A stretch of DNA of 64,000 bases from Candidatus Eiseniibacteriota bacterium (GTDB lineage Bacteria; Eisenbacteria; RBG-16-71-46; SZUA-252): NCBI GenBank assembly GCA_031370645.1, contig JANMQV010000071.1:1-64000 (forward strand), written 5' to 3'. The notes beneath the pieces were generated by a model. The model was not told the origin of the DNA. It saw only the letters and a program-made list of their open reading frames with translations, and did no database searches. Each line of letters begins with the position of its first letter. The first letter of the stretch is position 1. Below, piece by piece: positions 41,942-52,414 of the stretch. Position numbers and translations under genes: made by a program.

Positions 41942-42050
41942 CGTCCGAGAGCCACTCTTTTCATTGTCTTGAAGGCTCGATTCCTGCATACTATCCGCCG
42001 CGTCCGTGAGGTGCAACGTCGCTCGTCAACCAAAGGTGGATCAATCACGC

Positions 42051-43754
42051 ATGGCGCACCCCCGCTTCGCTCCCATCGCCCCATCGCTATTTCTAGCACT
42101 GGCCCTGGTCTGCTTCCCTTTGTCCGTCCCGGTGGCGCACGCCACGTGGGCCACCAACGGCAGCCCCGCTTCGCTTGCCGACTCGAACCAAGTGTTGGCG
42201 CGTTCGCTCGCCGACGGCTCGGGCGGCGTCTTCATGGTTTGGGAAGACTATCGGTCGGGTGACGCCGACATCTACGCGCAGCATCTCGACGGCGCCGGCA
42301 CTCCGCTCTGGGGTTCGAACGGCACGCTCGTCGTATCCCAGACGGCCGGCCAGGAATCGCCTGTTCTCGCGACGGATGGTTCGGGCGGCATCATCGTGGC
42401 CTGGCAGGATGGCCGAAGCGGCGGCTACGACATCTACGCCCAAGCGCTGAACGCCGCGGGCGCGACGCGCTGGACGGCGAGCGGAGTTCCGATCTGCCTC
42501 GCCTCCGGCACTCAAGTTCTTCAGGTCGCCACCGACGACGGCGCGGGTGGCGCCATCGTGGCGTGGCGCGATCAGCGCGGGGCCGACACCGACATCTACG
42601 TGCAGCGCGTCGACAACGGCGGCACGACGCTCTGGACGTTGAACGGCGCGGCCGTCTGCGACACGATCGGAACGCAGAGCGACATTCGCATCTTGAGGGA
42701 TCAGCAGGGTGGGGCGTTCATGCTCTGGCGCGACCGGCGGAGCGGCACCAATTCCGACCTCTATGCGCAGCGCGTGAACCCGAGCGGCGCCATGCTCTGG
42801 ACTAAGAATGGCGTCGTCGTCACCGCCGCCGTGAACGATCAATTGGGCCCCGCGGTCGTGAGCGACGGGCGCTTCGGCTTCATCGCCGCCTGGCATGACG
42901 CGCGGAACGGCCTCGACTACGACATCTTCGCGCAGCGCATTCGCCCGAACGGTGCGGCGGCCTGGACCGCGAACGGTGTCGGAGTCTCCGTCACCGCGGC
43001 GAATCAGCAGTTGCCGGTGATCACCTCCGACGGCGCCGCTGGCGCAATCGTGGCCTGGTTCGATCCGCGTACGAACTCGCGGGGCGACGTCTATGCCCAG
43101 CGCGTGGATAGTCTCGGCGTTCAGAAGTGGACCGCGAACGGAGTGGCGGTCTGCGCCGCGGACAGCACCCAGTTCGTGCGCACGATCGTTTCCGACCAAT
43201 CGGGCGGCGCCATCATCGGCTGGGACGACGACCGCGCCGGATTCCGCGAGGTGTGGGCGCAACACGTGAATGCGAGCGGTTCGCTCCTCTGGGCTCCGTT
43301 GGGACTTCAGATCGCGACGGCGGCAGGGCAGCGGAATCTCAATTCGTCCGTGGGCGACGGCCAAGGCGGCGCGATCTTCGCCTGGGAAGACTTCCGAAAC
43401 GGGATCAAGTCGGACATCTACGCCTACCGTGTCACGTCGATCGGTACGGGCGTGGAAGCATCGGCGGCTCCGGCGGCTCCGGTCCGTCTCTATCCGGCGC
43501 GTCCGAATCCCTTCAATCCGCACACCGTTCTTTCGTATCGGATCGACCAGCCGGGTGCCGTACGGCTCGCGCTCTACGATGTGCAGGGGCGCTTGATTCG
43601 GGTCCTGGTCCGTGGCGACCGGCCCGCGGGGACACACGATGTCTCCTGGGACGGCACCGACTCGCGGGGGACACCCTGCGCCTCGGGCGTCTACTTCGCC
43701 CTCCTCCAAGCGGGCTCCGCGAGGCGGCAGACTTCGCTCACGCTCCTCCGGTAA
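42051..43754 (+). CDS. Secreted 8-repeat (probable beta-propeller) protein with C-terminal FlgD-Ig-like domain
   Basis: Eight approximately 56-aa DGxGGxxxxWxDxR..DIYAQ repeats; PNPFNP...YDVQGRLIR...WDG...SGVYF. Confidence 0.85.
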   Translation: MAHPRFAPIAPSLFLALALVCFPLSVPVAHATWATNGSPASLADSNQVLARSLADGSGGVFMVWEDYRSGDADIYAQHLDGAGTPLWGSNGTLVVSQTAGQESPVLATDGSGGIIVAWQDGRSGGYDIYAQALNAAGATRWTASGVPICLASGTQVLQVATDDGAGGAIVAWRDQRGADTDIYVQRVDNGGTTLWTLNGAAVCDTIGTQSDIRILRDQQGGAFMLWRDRRSGTNSDLYAQRVNPSGAMLWTKNGVVVTAAVNDQLGPAVVSDGRFGFIAAWHDARNGLDYDIFAQRIRPNGAAAWTANGVGVSVTAANQQLPVITSDGAAGAIVAWFDPRTNSRGDVYAQRVDSLGVQKWTANGVAVCAADSTQFVRTIVSDQSGGAIIGWDDDRAGFREVWAQHVNASGSLLWAPLGLQIATAAGQRNLNSSVGDGQGGAIFAWEDFRNGIKSDIYAYRVTSIGTGVEASAAPAAPVRLYPARPNPFNPHTVLSYRIDQPGAVRLALYDVQGRLIRVLVRGDRPAGTHDVSWDGTDSRGTPCASGVYFALLQAGSARRQTSLTLLR

Positions 43755-43806
43755 ACGGCGTTCCCGCAACGACCTCGGTTTCCTCGCCGGGCTCCGGGCA
43801 ACCGGA

Positions 43807-43835
43807 TTGACTCCCGGCGGGGAAACCGATACTGT
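43807..43835 (+). promoter_or_regulatory. Putative sigma70 promoter of the spt operon
   Basis: TTGACT-17nt-TACTGT. Confidence 0.55.
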
Positions 43836-43902
43836 TTCCGCAGTTCTGACGCAGCAACCTCTCTCGGGCAACCCCCACTCCGAACACCACATTCGAGGAA
43901 GC

Positions 43903-45105
43903 GTGGATCTTTTCGAGAAGTGTAACAACTTTACCGAGCATCGTTTGGCCCAGCGTGCGGGGATTTACCCGTACTTCCTCCCGATCGCCGAAAATCATGG
44001 TACCGAGGTCACGATCAACGGCCGCCGCCTCATCATGGCGGGGTCGAATAACTACCTCGGCCTCACGAAGCACCCCAAGGTGATCGCGGCGGCGGAAGAA
44101 GCGCTTCGCCGCTTCGGGACGTCCAACAACGGCTCGCGATTCCTGAACGGGACCCTGGAACTCCACGTGGAGCTCGAGGCTCGCCTGGCGAAGTTCATGC
44201 GCAAGGAATCGGCTCTCGTCTTCTCGACCGGCTACCTCACGAATCTCGGCAGCATTTCGGCCCTGAGCGACAAGGGCGATGTGGTCATCCTCGACAAGGA
44301 AGCCCACGCCTGCATCGTGGACGGCGCCAGGCTCGGCTACGGCGACGTGAAGCGTTTCCGCCACAACGACGTGAACGATCTCGAACGGGTTCTTTCATCG
44401 GTTCCGCCGAAGGCAGGGAAACTGGTCGTGGTGGACGGGCTTTACTCCATGGAGGGCGACATCGCGCCGCTCCCGGAGATCGTCCGCCTCTGCAAGGAAT
44501 TCGACGCGAGACTTCTGGTGGACGACGCCCACGGCATCGGTGTGTTGGGTGATCGAGGCGCCGGCGCCTGCGACGCCGCCGGCGTGGAAGACGATGTCGA
44601 CTTGGTGATGGGCACATTCAGCAAATCATTCGCGTCGCTCGGCGGCTTCATCGCCGGTCCGACCCGCGTCCTCGACTATCTCCGCCACCACGCGCGCGCC
44701 ATGATCTTCTCGGCGAGCGTCACCCCGGCCAGCGTGGCCGCCGCCCTCGCGTCGCTCGAAATCATCGAGACCGAGCCGGCGCTCCGCGACCGCCTCCGCG
44801 CCATCGCCCTCAAGATGCGGACCGGCTTCCGGGCGCAGGGCCTCGAAGTCGGAAGCGGCGTCGGGACTCCGATCGTGCCGATCTTCATCGGCGACCGAAT
44901 GAAAACGATGCAGGTCTGGCGAAAGGTGCTCGATCGTGGCGTCTTTGTGAACGCCATCGTCGTTCCGGCCGTTCAGCCGGGGCGGGACCTCCTTCGCACC
45001 TCCTACATGGCGACCCACAAGGACGAGCAGCTCGATACGATTCTCCGGGTCGTGGACGAGGTGCGGCAGGAAGTCGGTCTCGAATTGGTCCCCAAGGCCA
45101 ACTAG
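43903..45105 (+). CDS. spt: Serine palmitoyltransferase-like alpha-oxoamine synthase (PLP)
   Basis: GIYPYF, GSNNYLGL, GSRFLNGT, DDAHG, GTFSKSF (PLP Lys); context with CerS- and CerR-like genes. Confidence 0.78.
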   Translation: MDLFEKCNNFTEHRLAQRAGIYPYFLPIAENHGTEVTINGRRLIMAGSNNYLGLTKHPKVIAAAEEALRRFGTSNNGSRFLNGTLELHVELEARLAKFMRKESALVFSTGYLTNLGSISALSDKGDVVILDKEAHACIVDGARLGYGDVKRFRHNDVNDLERVLSSVPPKAGKLVVVDGLYSMEGDIAPLPEIVRLCKEFDARLLVDDAHGIGVLGDRGAGACDAAGVEDDVDLVMGTFSKSFASLGGFIAGPTRVLDYLRHHARAMIFSASVTPASVAAALASLEIIETEPALRDRLRAIALKMRTGFRAQGLEVGSGVGTPIVPIFIGDRMKTMQVWRKVLDRGVFVNAIVVPAVQPGRDLLRTSYMATHKDEQLDTILRVVDEVRQEVGLELVPKAN

Positions 45106-45120
45106 GCGTTCGCGAACACC

Positions 45121-46233
45121 GTGGACGTCGTCCCGGTCGAGGGCTCGCGCGATCTAGCCCGCTTCATTCGATTTCCGCTCGAGCTCTACCGCGACCATCC
45201 GCATTGGGTGGCGCCTCTCTCCTCGGACGAGCAGGTCCGCCTCACCCCCGGAAAGAACCCCTTCTTCGAGCATGGCAAGGCCTCGACCTTCCTCGCGCTC
45301 GAGGGGGGGCGAATCGTCGGCCGCGTCGCCGCCTCCACCGACAAGAACCACGACTCGATCCATAGAGAGCGCCAGGGCGCGTTCGGATTCTTCGAAGCGC
45401 GTTCGGCCGCCGCCTCTTCGGCGCTTCTCGCCGCGGCGGAAGCATGGGCGCGCCAAGAGGGCGCGACGATCATGCGCGGGCCGCTCTCGTTCACCACGAA
45501 CGACGAATGCGGACTTCTGGTCGAGGGCTTCGACCGGTCGCAGCCTCTTCTGATGCCCTACAACCCACCCGAGTACGGCGGCTGGATCGAATCCGCCGGC
45601 TACGCGAAGGCGAAGGACCTCTACTCCTTCTCGATCCCCGGCCCTTATAAAGCCAATCCTACCTTTCAGCGCATCGCGGAAATGGCGCGCCGCCGCTCGG
45701 GCGTCGTGACTCGCCCGATCGACATGAAGCGCTTCGACCAGGAGCTGGCGCGCGTGAAGGATATCTACAACAGCGCGTGGGAGAAGAATTGGGGCTTCGT
45801 CCCGATGACCGACGCCGAGATCGATCACATGGCGAAGCAGCTGAAGCCGGCTGTGGTCGCCGATTTTATCCGCTTCGCCGAAGTGGATGGAAAGACGGTG
45901 GCGTTTCTTCTCTACGTGCCCGACGTCAATCTGGCATTGAAGCCGGCGCGGGGAAGTCTCTTTCCGTTCGGCATCTTTCATCTCCTCCTGGGGCTTCCGC
46001 GAATTCGCGAGGGACGGCTCATGGCGCTCGGGGTCGTGCCGGAGCATCGGCGCACCGGGCTCGCGCCCTCGCTCGTCACGGATCTGGGTGAGGCGCTCAC
46101 GAAGAAGGGCTACGGCCTCTCCACGATCGGCTGGACGCTCGAGGACAACGAGGCGGTGAACAATCTCGCGCTCGGCTATGGCTGCACTCGAAGCGCCGTG
46201 CACCGGATCTACGCCAAGCCGCTGAGCGCGTGA
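45121..46233 (+). CDS. cerS: GNAT-fold acyltransferase resembling bacterial ceramide synthase
   Basis: WVAPL, NPFF, VGRVAA, FGFFE, GLLVEGF...MPYNP, NWGFVPMT, WTLEDN; directly after spt. Confidence 0.7.
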   Translation: MDVVPVEGSRDLARFIRFPLELYRDHPHWVAPLSSDEQVRLTPGKNPFFEHGKASTFLALEGGRIVGRVAASTDKNHDSIHRERQGAFGFFEARSAAASSALLAAAEAWARQEGATIMRGPLSFTTNDECGLLVEGFDRSQPLLMPYNPPEYGGWIESAGYAKAKDLYSFSIPGPYKANPTFQRIAEMARRRSGVVTRPIDMKRFDQELARVKDIYNSAWEKNWGFVPMTDAEIDHMAKQLKPAVVADFIRFAEVDGKTVAFLLYVPDVNLALKPARGSLFPFGIFHLLLGLPRIREGRLMALGVVPEHRRTGLAPSLVTDLGEALTKKGYGLSTIGWTLEDNEAVNNLALGYGCTRSAVHRIYAKPLSA

Positions 46234-47267
46234 GCGGACCCGCCCCTTCGCCGGCAAGCGAGCCGCCGCGCTCGCCCGCGCCCGACGCCCCGCTCGCCGT
46301 CGTGACGGGGGCATCGGGGTTCGTCGGAAGCCACATCGTCGATCAACTCCTCGGCCGCGGCGCGCGAGTCCGCTGCATCCTTCGCCGCACTTCCTCACGG
46401 CGCTGGCTGGAAGGGAAGCCGGTCGAGATCGCCGTGACTCCGCTGGAGGACTCGGCGGCGCTCGCCGCCGCCGTCGCGGGGGCCACCTGGATCGTCCACG
46501 CCGCCGGGCTCACGAGCGCCCGGAACGCCGCCGAATTCCACGAAGCGAATGTCGGCGGCACCGAGCAGATGCTTCGCGCCGCCTTATCGGTAGGCTCGCC
46601 GCTCCGCCGCTTCCTCCTGATCTCGAGCCTGGCCGCCGCCGGACCGAGCCGTGACGGAATGCCGGTCACCGAGGCGCACCCGCCGCGCCCCGTTTCCGCA
46701 TACGGCGAGAGCAAACTTCGCGCGGAGGAACTCGTCCTCCAAATCCGCCATCGCCTTTCGGTCTGCTCCATTCGCCCGCCGGCAGTCTATGGACCCCGCG
46801 ACGAAGCGACGTTCAAGATCTTCGCGGCGGTGAAGCGGCACGTGCAGCCCGTGCTCCACCGCGGAGGGAAATTCTCGATCGTCCATGCGGAGGATCTGGC
46901 GCGCGCCTGCTGCCTCGCGCTCGAAGACGATCGTGCCTCGGGCGAAGTCTTCTTCGTCTCGGAGCCCGAGGTCACCGACTACGACCGGATGGGAAACGCC
47001 GCGAAACTGGCGCTTGGGACCTGGGCCGTTCGCTTCGAGCCGCCGGCGTGGCTCCTCGCGCTCGGCGCGCTCGGGGGGGAGGCGATCGGCGCGATGACGA
47101 ATCGGCCACCGCTTCTCTCGCGGCAGAAGCTGCGGGAAATTCAGGCCGGCGACTGGATCTGCAGCTCGGCGAAGATCCGGTCGCATCTCGGCTGGGCGCC
47201 GGAGATGCAGCTCGCCGCCGGGTTTCGACAGACGGCGGCCTGGTACCGCGAGGCTGGCTGGCTGTAG
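46230..47267 (+). CDS. NAD-dependent extended SDR, candidate ceramide reductase
   Basis: TGASGFVG, ISSLAAAGP, YGESK, RPPAVYGPRD; GTGA-coupled to the cerS-like gene. Confidence 0.7.
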   Translation: MSGPAPSPASEPPRSPAPDAPLAVVTGASGFVGSHIVDQLLGRGARVRCILRRTSSRRWLEGKPVEIAVTPLEDSAALAAAVAGATWIVHAAGLTSARNAAEFHEANVGGTEQMLRAALSVGSPLRRFLLISSLAAAGPSRDGMPVTEAHPPRPVSAYGESKLRAEELVLQIRHRLSVCSIRPPAVYGPRDEATFKIFAAVKRHVQPVLHRGGKFSIVHAEDLARACCLALEDDRASGEVFFVSEPEVTDYDRMGNAAKLALGTWAVRFEPPAWLLALGALGGEAIGAMTNRPPLLSRQKLREIQAGDWICSSAKIRSHLGWAPEMQLAAGFRQTAAWYREAGWL

Positions 47268-47329
47268 TAGACTCGCTCCACGGGGGGCACGGATCAGGCC
47301 GGAGCCGGCACCCCGCGGAAGGACCCCTG

Positions 47330-49867
47330 GTGCGCCGCACTCTCCTCGTCCCGATCCTCGCCTTCTCGATCCTGACGGGTGCGGCAACTGTCGCCGGCAG
47401 GGAGGCCCTCGCCGCGCCGCCGATCTCCCGGAACGTCACCCTCCACGCGCATCTCACCGATTACCCCATCACTTCCGCCTGCACGGCATACGTTCACCCC
47501 GACGGGCGCGAATACGCCGTGGTCGGCACCGGCGAGGGGACCTCCATCGTCAACGTGACGAACCCCGACGCCTGCTACGAAGTCGGATTCATTCCCGGGC
47601 TGAGCAGTCAGTGGCGCGAGATGAAGTCGTACCGCCAGTGGATCTACATCACGACGGAGGCGCCCGGCGGCGGCATTCAGATCGTGCGCATGACCGACCC
47701 CGAGCATCCGGTTCTGGCGAAGATTTGGGCGGGTTCCTTCAATCGCGCCCACACGCTCGCGGTCGACACGACGCGCGCGCTCCTCATCGCAAACGGCACG
47801 CGCTTCGGCAACATCCAGATGGGGATGCGCATCCTCTCGATCGAGGATCCGGAGAATCCGGTGGAGATCAGCGCCTACGGAGACGACTACGTCCACGATT
47901 CGTGGGTGAGGAACGACACCCTCTACGCCCACTGCATCCAGAGCGGCATCGCGCGCGTTTTCGATCTGAGCGAGCCCTACCTTCCGCGCGAGATCACGGC
48001 CTGGGGTTATCCGAACGCCGCCACGCACAGCGGGGAGACATCCCGCGACGGGCGGTGGCTCTACATCTGCGACGAGCGGAATTACAGCACGCTGAAAGTC
48101 TTCGACATGGTGAGCCCCTACTTCCACGAATTGACCGAGGAGCGGACGGTGAATCCGCTCGCCATCGTCCACAACATCCACGTGAAGGCCGACACCGCAT
48201 TTGTCGCCTGGTACACGGAAGGGGTGCGCCTCTTCGACCTTGCGGAGCCTTCGTTGCCAACCGAGTGGGGGTGGTACGACACCTACGGCGGCTTCTCGGG
48301 TGGGTTCCACGGTGTGTGGGAGGTGGCCACGTTCCCATCGGGCACGTTCATCGCGAGCGACATCGGGGGGGGACTCTTCGTCTTTCGAGCCGACCCCGAC
48401 TACGGCACCGTGAAGCTCGCCGTCCACGACGGCGCGTTTCAGCCGATCGCCGGCGCCGATGTCGTCCGCGCGGGCGCCACGGTTGAGCCGGGCGGCTCGG
48501 GCGGCGGCGATTCCACCCGAACGCAGGCGCGCGGCTACGCCCGGATCGCGCTCGCGCCCGGAAACCACGAACTCGTCGTCTCCAAGTTCGGATTCACGAC
48601 GGCGCGTGTCGCCGTGAGCGTCTCGCGCGGCTCGCGCGGCTCGATCGATGTGACGCTCCTTCCGGCTCCGTCGTCGCCCGCCGGGGGGAGCGTCGAGCGC
48701 CTCGGGGACGGAACGCCACTCCCCGGCGCGACCCTCACCGCGGTGGGCACTCCGCTTCAGGCGCTCTCGGACGCGAACGGCGCTTACACGCTCGGCGCCG
48801 TTCCCGTGGGAAGTTATCGCTTCCAATGCCGGCACCCCGGCCATGCGCCGCTCGACCGGGATGGCGATGTGAGCGCGGGCGCCGACCGGGACGATCGGTG
48901 GGAACTCCTGCCGGCCGCGTGGTACGACTCGAGCGACACCGACCGCGGCTGGTCCTTCTTCACGACGGGCGACCACGCGGGGACCGGAATCTGGGAGCGC
49001 GGCCTTCCGAGAGGGACGTCGAATCCCAACTTGAGCGCTGTCGTGCCGCATGCGGCGCGCGAACCGCGGCTTGCGCCGAATCACGAAGGGGAAGCGGAGG
49101 GCGTCGACGCGCTCGCCGTCGGTCCCGTAGCACCTGGTTACGACGCGTCGCCCGAGGGGAGCGGCGCCTGCTTCGTCACCGGAAACGGCGCTACCGAGAA
49201 CGATGTTTCGGGCGACGACGTGGACGGCGGCCGGACGACGCTGACCTCGCCCTCGTTCGATCTCACCGCGATGGACGACCCCATGATCGGATTCGACCGT
49301 TGGTACTACATGAGCACCCCGGGCGAGCCCGATTCGTTTCTCGTCGAGGTGAGCGGGGATGGCGTCGGCTGGGTGACGGCTCGGACGATTCGGGAGAGCG
49401 ATCCCGCGTGGCGCTTCGACGTGATCCGCGTGAAGGATTTCGTGGCGCCGACGGTCGCCACCCGAATCCGGTTCGTCGCGCAGGACGAACTCCCCGGCGG
49501 TGTTGTCGAAGCGGCGATCGACAACGTCGCGATCTGGGACGGCTCGCTCGTCCCGTCGCCGATTCCGCCGTCGCCTCCGGTGCCGGCCGCTCCGGCGATG
49601 CTCGACGCCCCGCGGCCGAATCCGACGCGGGGCGGCTCCGCGGTGACGCTCCGCCTCTCCCGTCCGGCGCACGCGCGCGTGGTGGTCTACGACGTGGCCG
49701 GGCGGCTCGTGGCGACGCTCTGGAACGGACCGGCGCCGGCGGGCGCGCTTGGATTGACCTGGGACGGGCGCGACGCGCGGGGTGTGCGCTCGCGGAGCGG
49801 TGTTTATTGGGTGCGCGCCGAGGCGGCGGGAGCGAGGCTCCTTCGCCGTGTCGTCCAGGTACGGTAG
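47330..49867 (+). CDS. Choice-of-anchor-B/LVIVD-type secreted protein with carboxypeptidase-regulatory-like and FlgD-Ig-like domains
   Basis: GREYAVVG, WREMK.Y, HD/HN repeats, PNPT...YDVAGRLV...WDG...SGVYW. Confidence 0.78.
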   Translation: MRRTLLVPILAFSILTGAATVAGREALAAPPISRNVTLHAHLTDYPITSACTAYVHPDGREYAVVGTGEGTSIVNVTNPDACYEVGFIPGLSSQWREMKSYRQWIYITTEAPGGGIQIVRMTDPEHPVLAKIWAGSFNRAHTLAVDTTRALLIANGTRFGNIQMGMRILSIEDPENPVEISAYGDDYVHDSWVRNDTLYAHCIQSGIARVFDLSEPYLPREITAWGYPNAATHSGETSRDGRWLYICDERNYSTLKVFDMVSPYFHELTEERTVNPLAIVHNIHVKADTAFVAWYTEGVRLFDLAEPSLPTEWGWYDTYGGFSGGFHGVWEVATFPSGTFIASDIGGGLFVFRADPDYGTVKLAVHDGAFQPIAGADVVRAGATVEPGGSGGGDSTRTQARGYARIALAPGNHELVVSKFGFTTARVAVSVSRGSRGSIDVTLLPAPSSPAGGSVERLGDGTPLPGATLTAVGTPLQALSDANGAYTLGAVPVGSYRFQCRHPGHAPLDRDGDVSAGADRDDRWELLPAAWYDSSDTDRGWSFFTTGDHAGTGIWERGLPRGTSNPNLSAVVPHAAREPRLAPNHEGEAEGVDALAVGPVAPGYDASPEGSGACFVTGNGATENDVSGDDVDGGRTTLTSPSFDLTAMDDPMIGFDRWYYMSTPGEPDSFLVEVSGDGVGWVTARTIRESDPAWRFDVIRVKDFVAPTVATRIRFVAQDELPGGVVEAAIDNVAIWDGSLVPSPIPPSPPVPAAPAMLDAPRPNPTRGGSAVTLRLSRPAHARVVVYDVAGRLVATLWNGPAPAGALGLTWDGRDARGVRSRSGVYWVRAEAAGARLLRRVVQVR

Positions 49868-49885: not shown

Positions 49886-50812
49886 CTAGAAGATCGAGAA
49901 CTTGAGATACTTCTTCGGGTTCTTCTCGATCTCGCCCATGAGCCGCTTCATCGACGCGACGAGGGCGGCGGTGTCGTCGTAGAGCGTCGAGTCCGCCATC
50001 AGCCGCCCCACGTTTCCGCGCCCCGACTCGATCACCGTCAGAACGGAATCGAGCCGCGTGCTCATCGACACGAGGCGGGCGTGGAGGTCGCCGTTCGTGA
50101 TCAACTGCGCGGCGGTTCCTTCTCCGTGTTGTAGCCGGTACGTCAGGCTGTCGAGCGATCCCGCCACCGAGAGCATCCGATCCGAGACCTTTGACTGTGT
50201 CTCCGTGAGCCGGAGCGTCAGCGTGTTCGCGTTCTTCGTCATCTCCACGATTGACTCGTAGAGCCGGTCGTCCTCGCTCAACCTTCCGAGCGTCCCGTTC
50301 CCGGCCGCGAGCCGGCGTCCCGCCCTGTTGAGCGAACCGAGCAGCATGGAAAGGCTGTCGGCCACCCCTTCGGCGCGCCCCATCAGCTGTTGCGGATCAC
50401 CGGCAATGTGCGTCGAGATCTCGTCGTCGCTCACGATCCGCGACTTCGACTCGTCGCCCGACTCGAGCGCCAGATAGAGATCGGCAAGGAAGCCGACGGT
50501 CGTCACGCGGGCCGTGGCGCCCTGGTGGAGCCGCGCGCGCGTACCCTTCTTCACGCCGAGCACGACCACCACCTCGTTCGTCTCCTTCTGGAGTTGAATC
50601 GTTCGCACCGTTCCGACCGGGACGCCGTTCAAGCGCACCGTGCTCCCGACTTCGAGCCCCGCGGAACTCTTGAAGCGGAGCGAGATGTTTTCCTCCGGAC
50701 CGAGCCGGAAGGCGCCCGATTGAAACGTGGCCCAGAGGAGGAGCGCCATGGCGACGAGGGCCGCCAGGCCGATCTGCAGCTTCATGAACGGGACGCGCCC
50801 CGTACGCTTCAC
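49886..50812 (-). CDS. mlaD: MlaD/MCE-domain protein with long helical extension
   Basis: N-terminal TM, GLEVGSTVRLNGVPVGTV, repeated GxGTLGRL, NPKKY. Confidence 0.85.
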   Translation of the reverse strand: MKRTGRVPFMKLQIGLAALVAMALLLWATFQSGAFRLGPEENISLRFKSSAGLEVGSTVRLNGVPVGTVRTIQLQKETNEVVVVLGVKKGTRARLHQGATARVTTVGFLADLYLALESGDESKSRIVSDDEISTHIAGDPQQLMGRAEGVADSLSMLLGSLNRAGRRLAAGNGTLGRLSEDDRLYESIVEMTKNANTLTLRLTETQSKVSDRMLSVAGSLDSLTYRLQHGEGTAAQLITNGDLHARLVSMSTRLDSVLTVIESGRGNVGRLMADSTLYDDTAALVASMKRLMGEIEKNPKKYLKFSIF

Positions 50813-51630
50813 GCCCTACCTCCTTCAGGGGGAGATGCCGGAGGCGCTCCCGGAAGGCCCGGGACCGCCTGAAACTGTCGCTGCGCCGCTCCGATCGCCT
50901 TCCGGAAGGGCGCCAAGAAATCGTTGATGAAGGGCGTTCGGGCGTGCGCCATCTCGGCCGAGGTGCCGTCGAAGACGACGCGGCCCCGCTCGAGGAGGGT
51001 CACGCTGTCCGCGACCTTGAACGCGTCGGCGATGTCGTGCGTCACCATGATGGCCGTCTTCCCCAGAGTATCCCGCAGGTGGACGATCAGGTCCGAAATT
51101 CGTTCGGCGCTCTGCGGGTCGAGCCCTGTGGTCGGTTCGTCGTAGAGAAGGACGATGGGATCCCGCGCCGCCAGCGCGCGCGCGATCGCCACGCGTCGCT
51201 GCATTCCTCCCGAGAGCTGGTCGGGCATCCGGTCGATCAGGTTCGGATCGAGTCCCACGAGATCCAGGAAGTTCCGCACCGTCGCCTCCACGTCTCGCTC
51301 CTCGTCGCCGTTCGCCTCGAGAAGCGCATAGCCGACATTCTCGCCCACCGTCATCGAATCGAACAGGGCCCCTTGCTGAAACACCATCCCCATGCGGGCC
51401 CGAATTTCACGGAGCCGCTCCGGGGTGACCTGCGTGAGATCTTCGCCATCGAAGAAGATCGAGCCGCGGTCGGGCTGATAGAGCCCCAGGAGGAGCCGGA
51501 GGATCGTGCTCTTTCCGGAGCCGGAGGGACCGAGGATCACGGTCGTCTTCCCGCGCGGCACCCGGAAGGAGACGCCGTAGAGTATCGGATTCCCTTCGAT
51601 GGAGAAGTCGACGTCGCGGAATTCGATCAT
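50809..51630 (-). CDS. mlaF: MlaF-type ABC ATPase
   Basis: GPSGSGKS, MVFQQGALFDSMTVGENV, LSGGMQRR, YDEPTTGLDP. Confidence 0.9.
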   Translation of the reverse strand: MIEFRDVDFSIEGNPILYGVSFRVPRGKTTVILGPSGSGKSTILRLLLGLYQPDRGSIFFDGEDLTQVTPERLREIRARMGMVFQQGALFDSMTVGENVGYALLEANGDEERDVEATVRNFLDLVGLDPNLIDRMPDQLSGGMQRRVAIARALAARDPIVLLYDEPTTGLDPQSAERISDLIVHLRDTLGKTAIMVTHDIADAFKVADSVTLLERGRVVFDGTSAEMAHARTPFINDFLAPFRKAIGAAQRQFQAVPGLPGAPPASPPEGGRA

Positions 51631-51634
51631 CGGC

Positions 51635-52414
51635 TCACCATCCCAAAATCCGGAAGAGCACTCGGGTGCAGACGACATCGGTCACGAGGATGCCGACCGA
51701 TGCGATGACGACCGATTCGGTGGTGGCCACCCCGACACCTTTCGCGCCACCCTCGGAACGGAACCCCTTCCAGCACGACGTCGTGACAATGAGGACGGCG
51801 AAGATGAAGGGTTTCAGCATCCCGACCAGCACGTTTTTCGGCGTCAGGTACTGCATGGCGCCGATCCAGTAGGACTCCCACGAGAGATGATACTGGAGGC
51901 CCACGAAGGCGCCGCCGATCACCGCGAGCGCGTCGCTCAAGACGGTCAGGATGGGAAGCGCGATCAGGAGCGCGATCGTCCGCGGCACGACGAGACGGCG
52001 GATCGGGTCGGTGCCGAAGGCGACGAGCGCGTCGATCTGGTCGCTCGAGCGCATGGCGCCCAGTTCGGCCGTGATGCCGGCCGACATGCGGGACGCGACG
52101 ACCATCCCCGTCAGCACGGGGCCGAGCGCGCGGACCACCGAGATCACCATGAAATGTCCCAGCTGACTCTTGGCGCCGGAATTCGAGAGCTCGCGCGCCA
52201 ACTGAATGGCCAAGGCCTGTCCCGCGACGATGGCGGAGATGAGGACGATCGTAAGGGAGCCGATCAACGCGAAGTGGAGTTGGTGCATCGTCTCCCGGGC
52301 GTAAAAGGGCCGTCCCAGGCAACTGCGAAGGGTCTCGATGGTGAAGAGCGTGTAGTCCTGAACGGTCTCGACGATGCGGCGAAACCACTCGAGGGGCGCA
52401 AACGTCACCGGCAC
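51635..52414 (-). CDS. mlaE: MlaE-type permease
   Basis: LGPVLT, AELGAM..DQIDAL..G.DP...LVVPR, GGAKGVG.ATT. Confidence 0.9.
   Translation of the reverse strand: MPVTFAPLEWFRRIVETVQDYTLFTIETLRSCLGRPFYARETMHQLHFALIGSLTIVLISAIVAGQALAIQLARELSNSGAKSQLGHFMVISVVRALGPVLTGMVVASRMSAGITAELGAMRSSDQIDALVAFGTDPIRRLVVPRTIALLIALPILTVLSDALAVIGGAFVGLQYHLSWESYWIGAMQYLTPKNVLVGMLKPFIFAVLIVTTSCWKGFRSEGGAKGVGVATTESVVIASVGILVTDVVCTRVLFRILGW

Follow-up and report, generated by a model that had tools for sequence, protein, structure and literature searches.

The window analyzed here, 64,000 nucleotides (nt) at the start of contig JANMQV010000071.1 in assembly GCA_031370645.1, comes from a Candidatus Eiseniibacteriota bacterium (phylum Eisenbacteria) and is high in GC (∼65%). 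It contains three closely packed genes on the forward strand that encode a serine palmitoyltransferase (SPT)-like, pyridoxal phosphate (PLP)-dependent alpha-oxoamine synthase (AOS), a tandem-GNAT N-acyltransferase and an extended short-chain dehydrogenase/reductase (SDR), preceded by a likely promoter (Table 1). Spt, the bacterial ceramide synthase (bCerS), and the ceramide reductase (CerR) make up the established bacterial ceramide pathway (PMC11087976, PMC9386255). The trio very probably constitutes an operon for the de novo synthesis of a ceramide-type lipid, a reading that is supported by gene structure, homology, fold, active-site conservation, phylogeny, gene linkage, and upstream conservation.

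Table 1. Positions of the three-gene operon, its likely promoter, and the neighboring genes in the window
Feature	Position	Strand	Basis or remarks
Likely sigma-70-type promoter	43807..43835	+	-35 TTGACT (43807-43812), 17-nt spacer, -10 TACTGT (43830-43835); upstream conservation
spt, SPT-like PLP AOS, 400 aa	43903..45105	+	Pfam, NCBIfam, PDB ranking, active site, tree
bcerS-like tandem-GNAT N-acyltransferase (YghO family), 370 aa	45121..46233	+	YghO homology, AlphaFold2 (AF2) fold, presumed acyl-CoA motif
cerR-like NAD(P)-dependent extended SDR, 345 aa	46230..47267	+	PF01370, cluster SDR homology, tree
Secreted protein	47331..49867	+	Signal-peptide-like N terminus, CarboxypepD_reg domains, C-terminal FlgD_ig; 63 nt after cerR
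582-aa protein	42006..43754	+	C-terminal FlgD_ig; between DUF1028 gene and spt
Convergent mla genes	49886..52414	-	
mlaD	49886..50812	-	
mlaF-like ABC ATPase gene	50809..51678	-	
Probable mlaE	51635..52414	-	

A gap of 15 nt separates spt from the GNAT gene, which in turn overlaps the SDR gene by 4 nt (GTGA), and the trio is therefore read as one transcription unit. Although the spt frame is already open from 43612, the GTG at 43903 was taken as the start because this codon, the AGGAAG upstream of it, and the few codons that immediately follow show no variation across 7 of 7 related loci. Position 43807 belongs to the TTGACT box and is no coding start. A sigma-70 consensus scan of 43500-47700 returned 0 promoter-like sites. 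Nevertheless, ATTGAC (43806-43811) and the T, A, and T at 43830, 43831, and 43835 (TAnnnT, after the 17-nt spacer) are invariant in the upstream regions of all seven relatives, whereas the mean column identity elsewhere in the same alignment is 58%. This invariance amid a poorly conserved spacer makes the promoter likely, on the strength of conservation instead of consensus score; the seven regions come from kin genomes, which weakens the argument somewhat. An Rfam search of 43000-48000 matched no family, and no plus-strand terminator-like site was found 3' of cerR.

The original prediction, made from the letters of the window, had described a promoter ahead of an oxoamine synthase with SPT-like motifs, a 370-aa GNAT-fold protein 15 nt later, and an overlapping extended SDR. 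This layout is borne out: conservation supports the promoter that the consensus scan missed, GIYPYF and GSRFLNGT begin at residues 20 (nt 43960) and 77 (nt 44131) of the Spt, the second protein has a Pfam GNAT domain, and the SDR overlaps it as described.

The identity of the oxoamine synthase was explored by profile searches, structural homologues, active-site residues, and phylogeny. The protein matches PF00155 (E value of 1.4e-56), as a fold-type I PLP enzyme of the AOS family should, and its NCBIfam ranking is SPT-CFB (NF047600, 496.7 bits), SPT-BetaP (NF047599, 414.4 bits), bioF (375.4 bits), and SPT-AlphaP (NF047603, 337.3 bits). Against the sequences of the PDB, the top ten distinct matches are all SPTs. 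The SPT of Sphingobacterium multivorum (SmSPT; 3A2B, 8GUH), a soluble homodimer of the acyl-CoA-using type, is the closest solved structure with 388.4 bits, and the Sphingomonas types reach 296 to 304 bits. The other enzymes score less, with 249.7 bits for a BioF/Kbl fusion, 248 for a cysteate acyltransferase, 234 for Kbl, 227 for 5-aminolevulinate synthase (ALAS), and 220 for BioF.

The active site of SmSPT is almost completely retained. With residue roles taken from PMC10196870 and a +3 offset given by the ungapped HMMER alignment, 13 of the 14 named residues are identical (N52, G80, S81, F83, H138, S185, D210, A212, H213, T241, S243, K244, and F272 in SmSPT). The lone change replaces Met271, a main-chain contact, with Ile268. 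Lys241 of the window protein, within GTFSKS, aligns with the catalytic Lys244 of SmSPT, and the equivalents of its Asn49, Gly77, and Ser78 frame the side chain and carboxylate of serine in the solved SmSPT complex (PMC10196870).

The AOS tree contained 65 rows (56 loci and 9 named sequences, with the 130-residue partial L041 dropped) and was obtained by a quick search. Support came from the Shimodaira-Hasegawa-like approximate likelihood ratio test (SH-aLRT) and not from bootstraps, and neither ALAS nor CqsA was represented. The phylogeny against Spt, BioF, and Kbl that had been proposed as a check places the window enzyme with the Spts, in a 57-row clade (SH-aLRT 97) shared with the E. coli cluster Spt and a Sphingomonas Spt. 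Outside this clade are E. coli BioF, E. coli Kbl, four Verrucomicrobia AOS, and a second AOS of the same genome. The 20-row subclade to which the window Spt belongs (SH-aLRT 97) includes Bacteroidota, Ignavibacteriota, and Zixibacteria sequences. The SPTs of E. coli, Caulobacter, and Sphingomonas wittichii all yielded 3-oxo-sphinganine in vivo (PMC9386255), and the E. coli cluster Spt in the tree is a homologue of the SPTEc of that study, which formed this product. The second AOS of the genome (G000:C156:57753-58829, plus strand; locus L002) scores 260.6 bits with SPT-AlphaP and groups with E. coli Kbl; it is presumably a housekeeping enzyme of the Kbl/BioF type.

The second protein of the trio has a GNAT domain (PF00583) at residues 211 to 350 and is 35% identical to E. 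coli YghO over 368 of its 370 residues (BLASTP, E value of 8e-73). A tblastn search of annotated plasmid and chromid records revealed full-length homologues in Rubrobacter (42% identity), Streptomyces (40%), Sphingomonas parapaucimobilis (37%), and E. coli (YghO, 35%), and in each case the homologue sits inside a sphingolipid locus. The AF2 model (predicted local distance difference test [pLDDT] score of 93.9) has a tandem-GNAT fold. Its best PDB neighbors are tandem GNATs, among them a glucosamine N-acetyltransferase, MAB_4324, and MshD, with template modeling (TM) scores of 0.57 to 0.62; no solved bCerS appeared among these neighbors, and a sequence search against the PDB gave nothing under an E value of 0.04. 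At residue 310 the protein carries RRTGLA, which we take to be the acyl-CoA binding motif. The gene is present in single copy in its own genome, and its closest homologues carry Candidatus Eisenbacteria labels. The family is large, with 7636 cluster representatives at an E value of ≤1e-3 and 1269 at ≤1e-30. In one predicted protein (P0216, 780 aa), an Spt that is 52% identical to that of the window is fused to a bCerS-like GNAT.

Another predicted protein (P0124, 784 aa) consists of two bCerS-like GNAT modules in tandem. Candidate Spt-GNAT fusions in five relatives, seen as open frames of ∼771 aa, were rejected, since the listing of open reading frames resolved them into two overlapping genes in different frames.

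The third protein matches PF01370 (E value of 1.1e-35) and shows the motifs of an SDR, GASGFVG (GxxGxxG) at residue 27 and YGESK (YxxxK) at residue 158. It aligns over its whole length, including a shared C-terminal stretch, with the cluster SDRs of Streptomyces (32% identity, E value of 7e-35) and E. coli (29%, 2e-34), and it also matches a Sphingomonas SDR (H93) that adjoins acp-spt. In two whole E. coli chromosomes, which were filed among the plasmid records, the sole match at an E value of ≤1e-12 is the reductase of the sphingolipid cluster, located 2 to 3 kb from yghO. The tblastn scores are 119 to 173 bits for cluster-linked and Bacteroidota SDRs, 91 to 98 for proteobacterial cluster SDRs, and 79 to 88 for annotated HpnA. 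In a tree of 55 rows, the window SDR and the E. coli and Sphingomonas references belong to a 33-row set. Caulobacter CerR is reported to be periplasmic (PMC11087976); the window SDR has a Pro-rich N terminus of 21 residues that is unmatched in all homologues.

The association of the three genes was assessed in 80 genome loci, the best among at least 598 that encode relatives of the GNAT, counting features within the fetched flanks (one flank was incomplete at 11 of the 80 loci). An AOS lies within 6 kb at 57/80 loci and scores ≥300 bits at 48/80. An SDR is found at 46/80, and all of these also have an AOS. The colinear order spt-GNAT-SDR is found at 23/80 loci and occurs in Eisenbacteria, Gemmatimonadota, Myxococcota, and Acidobacteriota. 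An Acidobacteriota label is attached to the nearest locus, L008, and Eisenbacteria labels to the next ones. In the phylum sample, the GNAT (E value of ≤1e-20) is present in 69 of 121 genomes, including 24 of the 25 from the window's own family; in the second large family it is found in 3 of 45, all of them weak matches. Nine related loci have the trio intact amid variable flanks (a further row, L095, which belongs to an unpublished genome, was not relied on).

The window genes belong to the same three enzyme families as the Caulobacter crescentus Spt (CCNA_01220/CC_1162), bCerS (CCNA_01212/CC_1154), and CerR (CCNA_01222/CC_1164). The Caulobacter locus, ccna_01212-01226, and the homologous loci of E. 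coli UTI89 and S. wittichii were described in a 2026 preprint. In PMC9386255, two Caulobacter genes are equated with E. coli and Sphingomonas genes under the names aca (CC_1154, yghO ECD_02850, Swit_3908) and epi (CC_1164, ECD_02852, Swit_3897); the window GNAT is a homologue of the E. coli and Sphingomonas products of the former, and the window SDR of those of the latter. The three organisms differ from the window in that they need or encode a dedicated acyl carrier protein (ACP) and acyl-ACP synthetase, and their loci also contain LptF/G paralogues. The gene order is SDR-ACP-AOS ... lptF-lptG-desaturase-GNAT in Sphingomonas and lptF-lptG / AOS-ACP-SDR-fatty acyl-AMP ligase / yghO in E. coli, whereas the window has one compact three-gene operon with no ACP, acyl-ACP synthetase, or LptF/G paralogues at the locus. 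The Rhodobacteria-type arrangement, in which AcpR and AasR (the dedicated ACP and acyl-ACP synthetase) are encoded beside Spt, is absent here, and the neighbors are unrelated genes. When all six frames of the complete 3.0-Mb assembly were searched for PF00550, the 2 matches obtained lay on contigs C131 and C68, and none on the contig of the window. Of the earlier claims, the absence of a dedicated ACP gene thus stands; the likeness to the Caulobacter pathway holds for the three enzyme families and fails for the five-gene version with dedicated ACP and acyl-ACP synthetase, since the window operon, to judge from sequence, is the ACP-less version. Given the lack of a dedicated ACP and the Bacteroidota-like Spt, acyl-CoA is probably the acyl donor.

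Closer parallels in gene arrangement are found in Actinomycetota. On a plasmid of Streptomyces sp. NBC_01001 and on plasmid 1 of Rubrobacter radiotolerans, AOS, GNAT, and SDR genes follow one another as in the window, overlapping or abutting and with no ACP; compared with the window proteins, the GNATs are 40 to 42% identical and the SDRs 32 to 34%. These clusters are nonetheless unlike that of the window in having extra fourth genes, belonging to another phylum, and encoding Spts of another subclade. In Bacteroidota, the three genes are reported to be nonadjacent (PMC11334938), whereas those of the window form one operon.

The fourth genes encode a protein of the lipoteichoic acid (LTA)-synthase family on the Rubrobacter plasmid (L006) and a condensation-domain protein on the Streptomyces plasmid (L004). 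In Bacteroides finegoldii (L099), the gene of a PAP2 phosphatase overlaps that of a CerR-like SDR. The additional products in these three genera are candidate head-group or tailoring enzymes. In the genome of the window, a PAP2_3 match (PF14378, 71.7 bits) lies on a different contig (G000:C31:3249-3776, minus strand); a ceramide head-group transferase is a possible identity for it, although the match is not specific, as the family also matches E. coli and other controls.

Several observations weigh against the assignment to ceramide synthesis. The Spt scores below every NCBIfam SPT equivalog cutoff (496.7 versus 640, 414.4 versus 500, and 337.3 versus 670 bits). The bioF score is likewise below its curated cutoff, and the Caulobacter control genome too scored below that of NF047603, the NCBIfam SPT models being lineage specific. 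Alanine and glycine, too, are low-efficiency substrates of SPTs (PMC10196870), so that a serine-derived head of the long-chain base is a prediction. The link to the genetically validated bCerS and CerR of Caulobacter is indirect, as it passes through homologues in E. coli and Sphingomonas that one paper names. Moreover, 23/80 loci have neither AOS nor SDR in the fetched flanks, so that membership of the GNAT family alone is no proof of ceramide synthesis. Among the NCBIfam models, HpnA ranks first for the SDR (132.5 bits, below the cutoff of 367.65), and the set that joins the window SDR to the proteobacterial references is supported by an SH-aLRT of only 90. An annotated HpnA is not part of this set but falls within the broader radiation of SDRs linked to such clusters. 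The separation from HpnA-like SDRs appears only moderately supported; membership in CerR therefore rests on context and a moderate phylogeny, and CerR-like and HpnA-like reductases may form one poorly delimited family. The proposed spt-cerS-cerR operon is upheld in that each gene matches its pathway enzyme to the extent that sequence, fold, phylogeny, and gene linkage can tell, with the qualification that SDR and HpnA are only moderately separated. The nested HpnA is that of Mycetohabitans, beside hpnH and shc.

Other products and origins for the trio were also considered. An Spt-like enzyme that uses another amino acid in vivo would give a noncanonical sphingolipid-like product, such as a 1-deoxy or glycine-derived base or some other N-acyl amino-ketone or amino-alcohol. 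A wider Spt-like clade with linked bCerS and CerR, of uncertain amino acid specificity, has been tied to unusual ceramides (PMC11334938), and both the low-efficiency use of Ala and Gly by SmSPT and the subthreshold NCBIfam scores of the window Spt would fit such a product. However, the near-complete identity with the SmSPT active site, which extends to Asn49, Gly77, and Ser78, and the wide margin by which solved serine-using SPTs match best argue for serine, and we consider this alternative quite unlikely. A sulfonolipid pathway of the capnine type, with the AOS acting as a cysteate fatty acyltransferase ahead of a reductase and an N-acyltransferase, follows similar logic (AOS, reductase, and N-acylation), and a solved cysteate-C-fatty acyltransferase is among the matches of the window Spt. 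Its 248 bits are nevertheless exceeded by the SPTs, which reach 388 and about 300 bits. Enzymes acting on cysteate make up a clade of their own, in which the substrate pocket is remodeled (PMC13692747), whereas the window Spt keeps the pocket residues of SmSPT, and the sequences closest to it in the tree are Spts with linked GNATs of the bCerS type. This makes sulfonolipid synthesis very improbable.

It is also conceivable that housekeeping enzymes, that is, a BioF or Kbl, an unrelated acetyltransferase, and a sugar- or hopanoid-associated epimerase, became neighbors by chance. The generic labels of the homologues ("GNAT family N-acetyltransferase" and "NAD-dependent epimerase") and the rank of HpnA as top NCBIfam model for the SDR are what such a neighborhood would lead one to expect. 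This explanation is hardly credible given that a Kbl-like AOS is encoded separately, on a different contig of the genome, that the 15-nt gap and 4-nt overlap indicate one transcription unit, that the trio recurs across many phyla (the 46 loci mentioned above), and that no hopanoid genes flank it in the window. Synthesis of a ceramide-type lipid from serine is thus the preferred reading.

The surroundings of the trio vary among close relatives. In the loci L008 to L011 and L092 to L094, the proteins are 81 to 89% (Spt), 57 to 74% (GNAT), and 60 to 76% (SDR) identical to those of the window, Spt being conserved far more strongly than the other two. Upstream of the trio the relatives have a divergent DUF1028 gene, and downstream either a secreted CarboxypepD_reg protein or convergent mlaD/F genes. 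The 582-aa FlgD_ig protein encoded ahead of spt is confined to the window and L008; elsewhere among the relatives, the DUF1028 gene directly adjoins the upstream region of spt. The secreted protein encoded after cerR in the window follows the trio also in L009, L010, and L093, but not in L011, L092, and L094, where the mla genes directly adjoin cerR. No terminator-like site was found between cerR and the gene of the secreted protein. That gene may be cotranscribed with the trio, and it is outside the conserved unit. A linkage of the trio to the Mla operon across phyla was rejected, as MlaD/E/F flank it only in close relatives (1/80 loci).

The chemistry of the pathway can be proposed from the homologues. 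Spt would condense L-serine with a long-chain acyl thioester, probably acyl-CoA, to 3-ketosphinganine, and the tandem GNAT of the YghO/bCerS family would attach the second acyl chain in amide linkage. With NAD(P)H as its cofactor, the CerR-like SDR would reduce the 3-keto group and so yield dihydroceramide. Which of these last two steps comes first is disputed in the literature, the Klein laboratory reportedly placing acylation before reduction and the Geiger laboratory reportedly placing reduction first.

A broader interpretation is that ceramide-type lipids are a core, vertically inherited envelope component of the whole Eisenbacteria family, made by a minimal ACP-independent operon and with a noncanonical product or trafficking, for example, an unusual long-chain base or export via the convergent Mla-type transporter of several relatives. 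We regard it as unlikely.

The operon represents no new kind of biology. Spt, bCerS, and CerR genes are often clustered, and PMC11334938 raised the number of phyla with potential producers from 9 to 40. The original prediction was therefore too generous in presenting the locus as unrecognized biology, since clustered spt, bcerS, and cerR were already reported from many phyla, about 40 in that paper. Eisenbacteria are not named in the main text of PMC11334938, and a literature search for Eisenbacteria and sphingolipid returned no relevant report. If the assignment is correct, an uncultured soil and sediment phylum would join the sphingolipid-making bacteria, with the smallest known gene set, namely, three genes with no dedicated ACP behind a promoter supported by conservation. 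The order of acylation and reduction, which is disputed, could then be tested conveniently with so compact an operon as a cassette.

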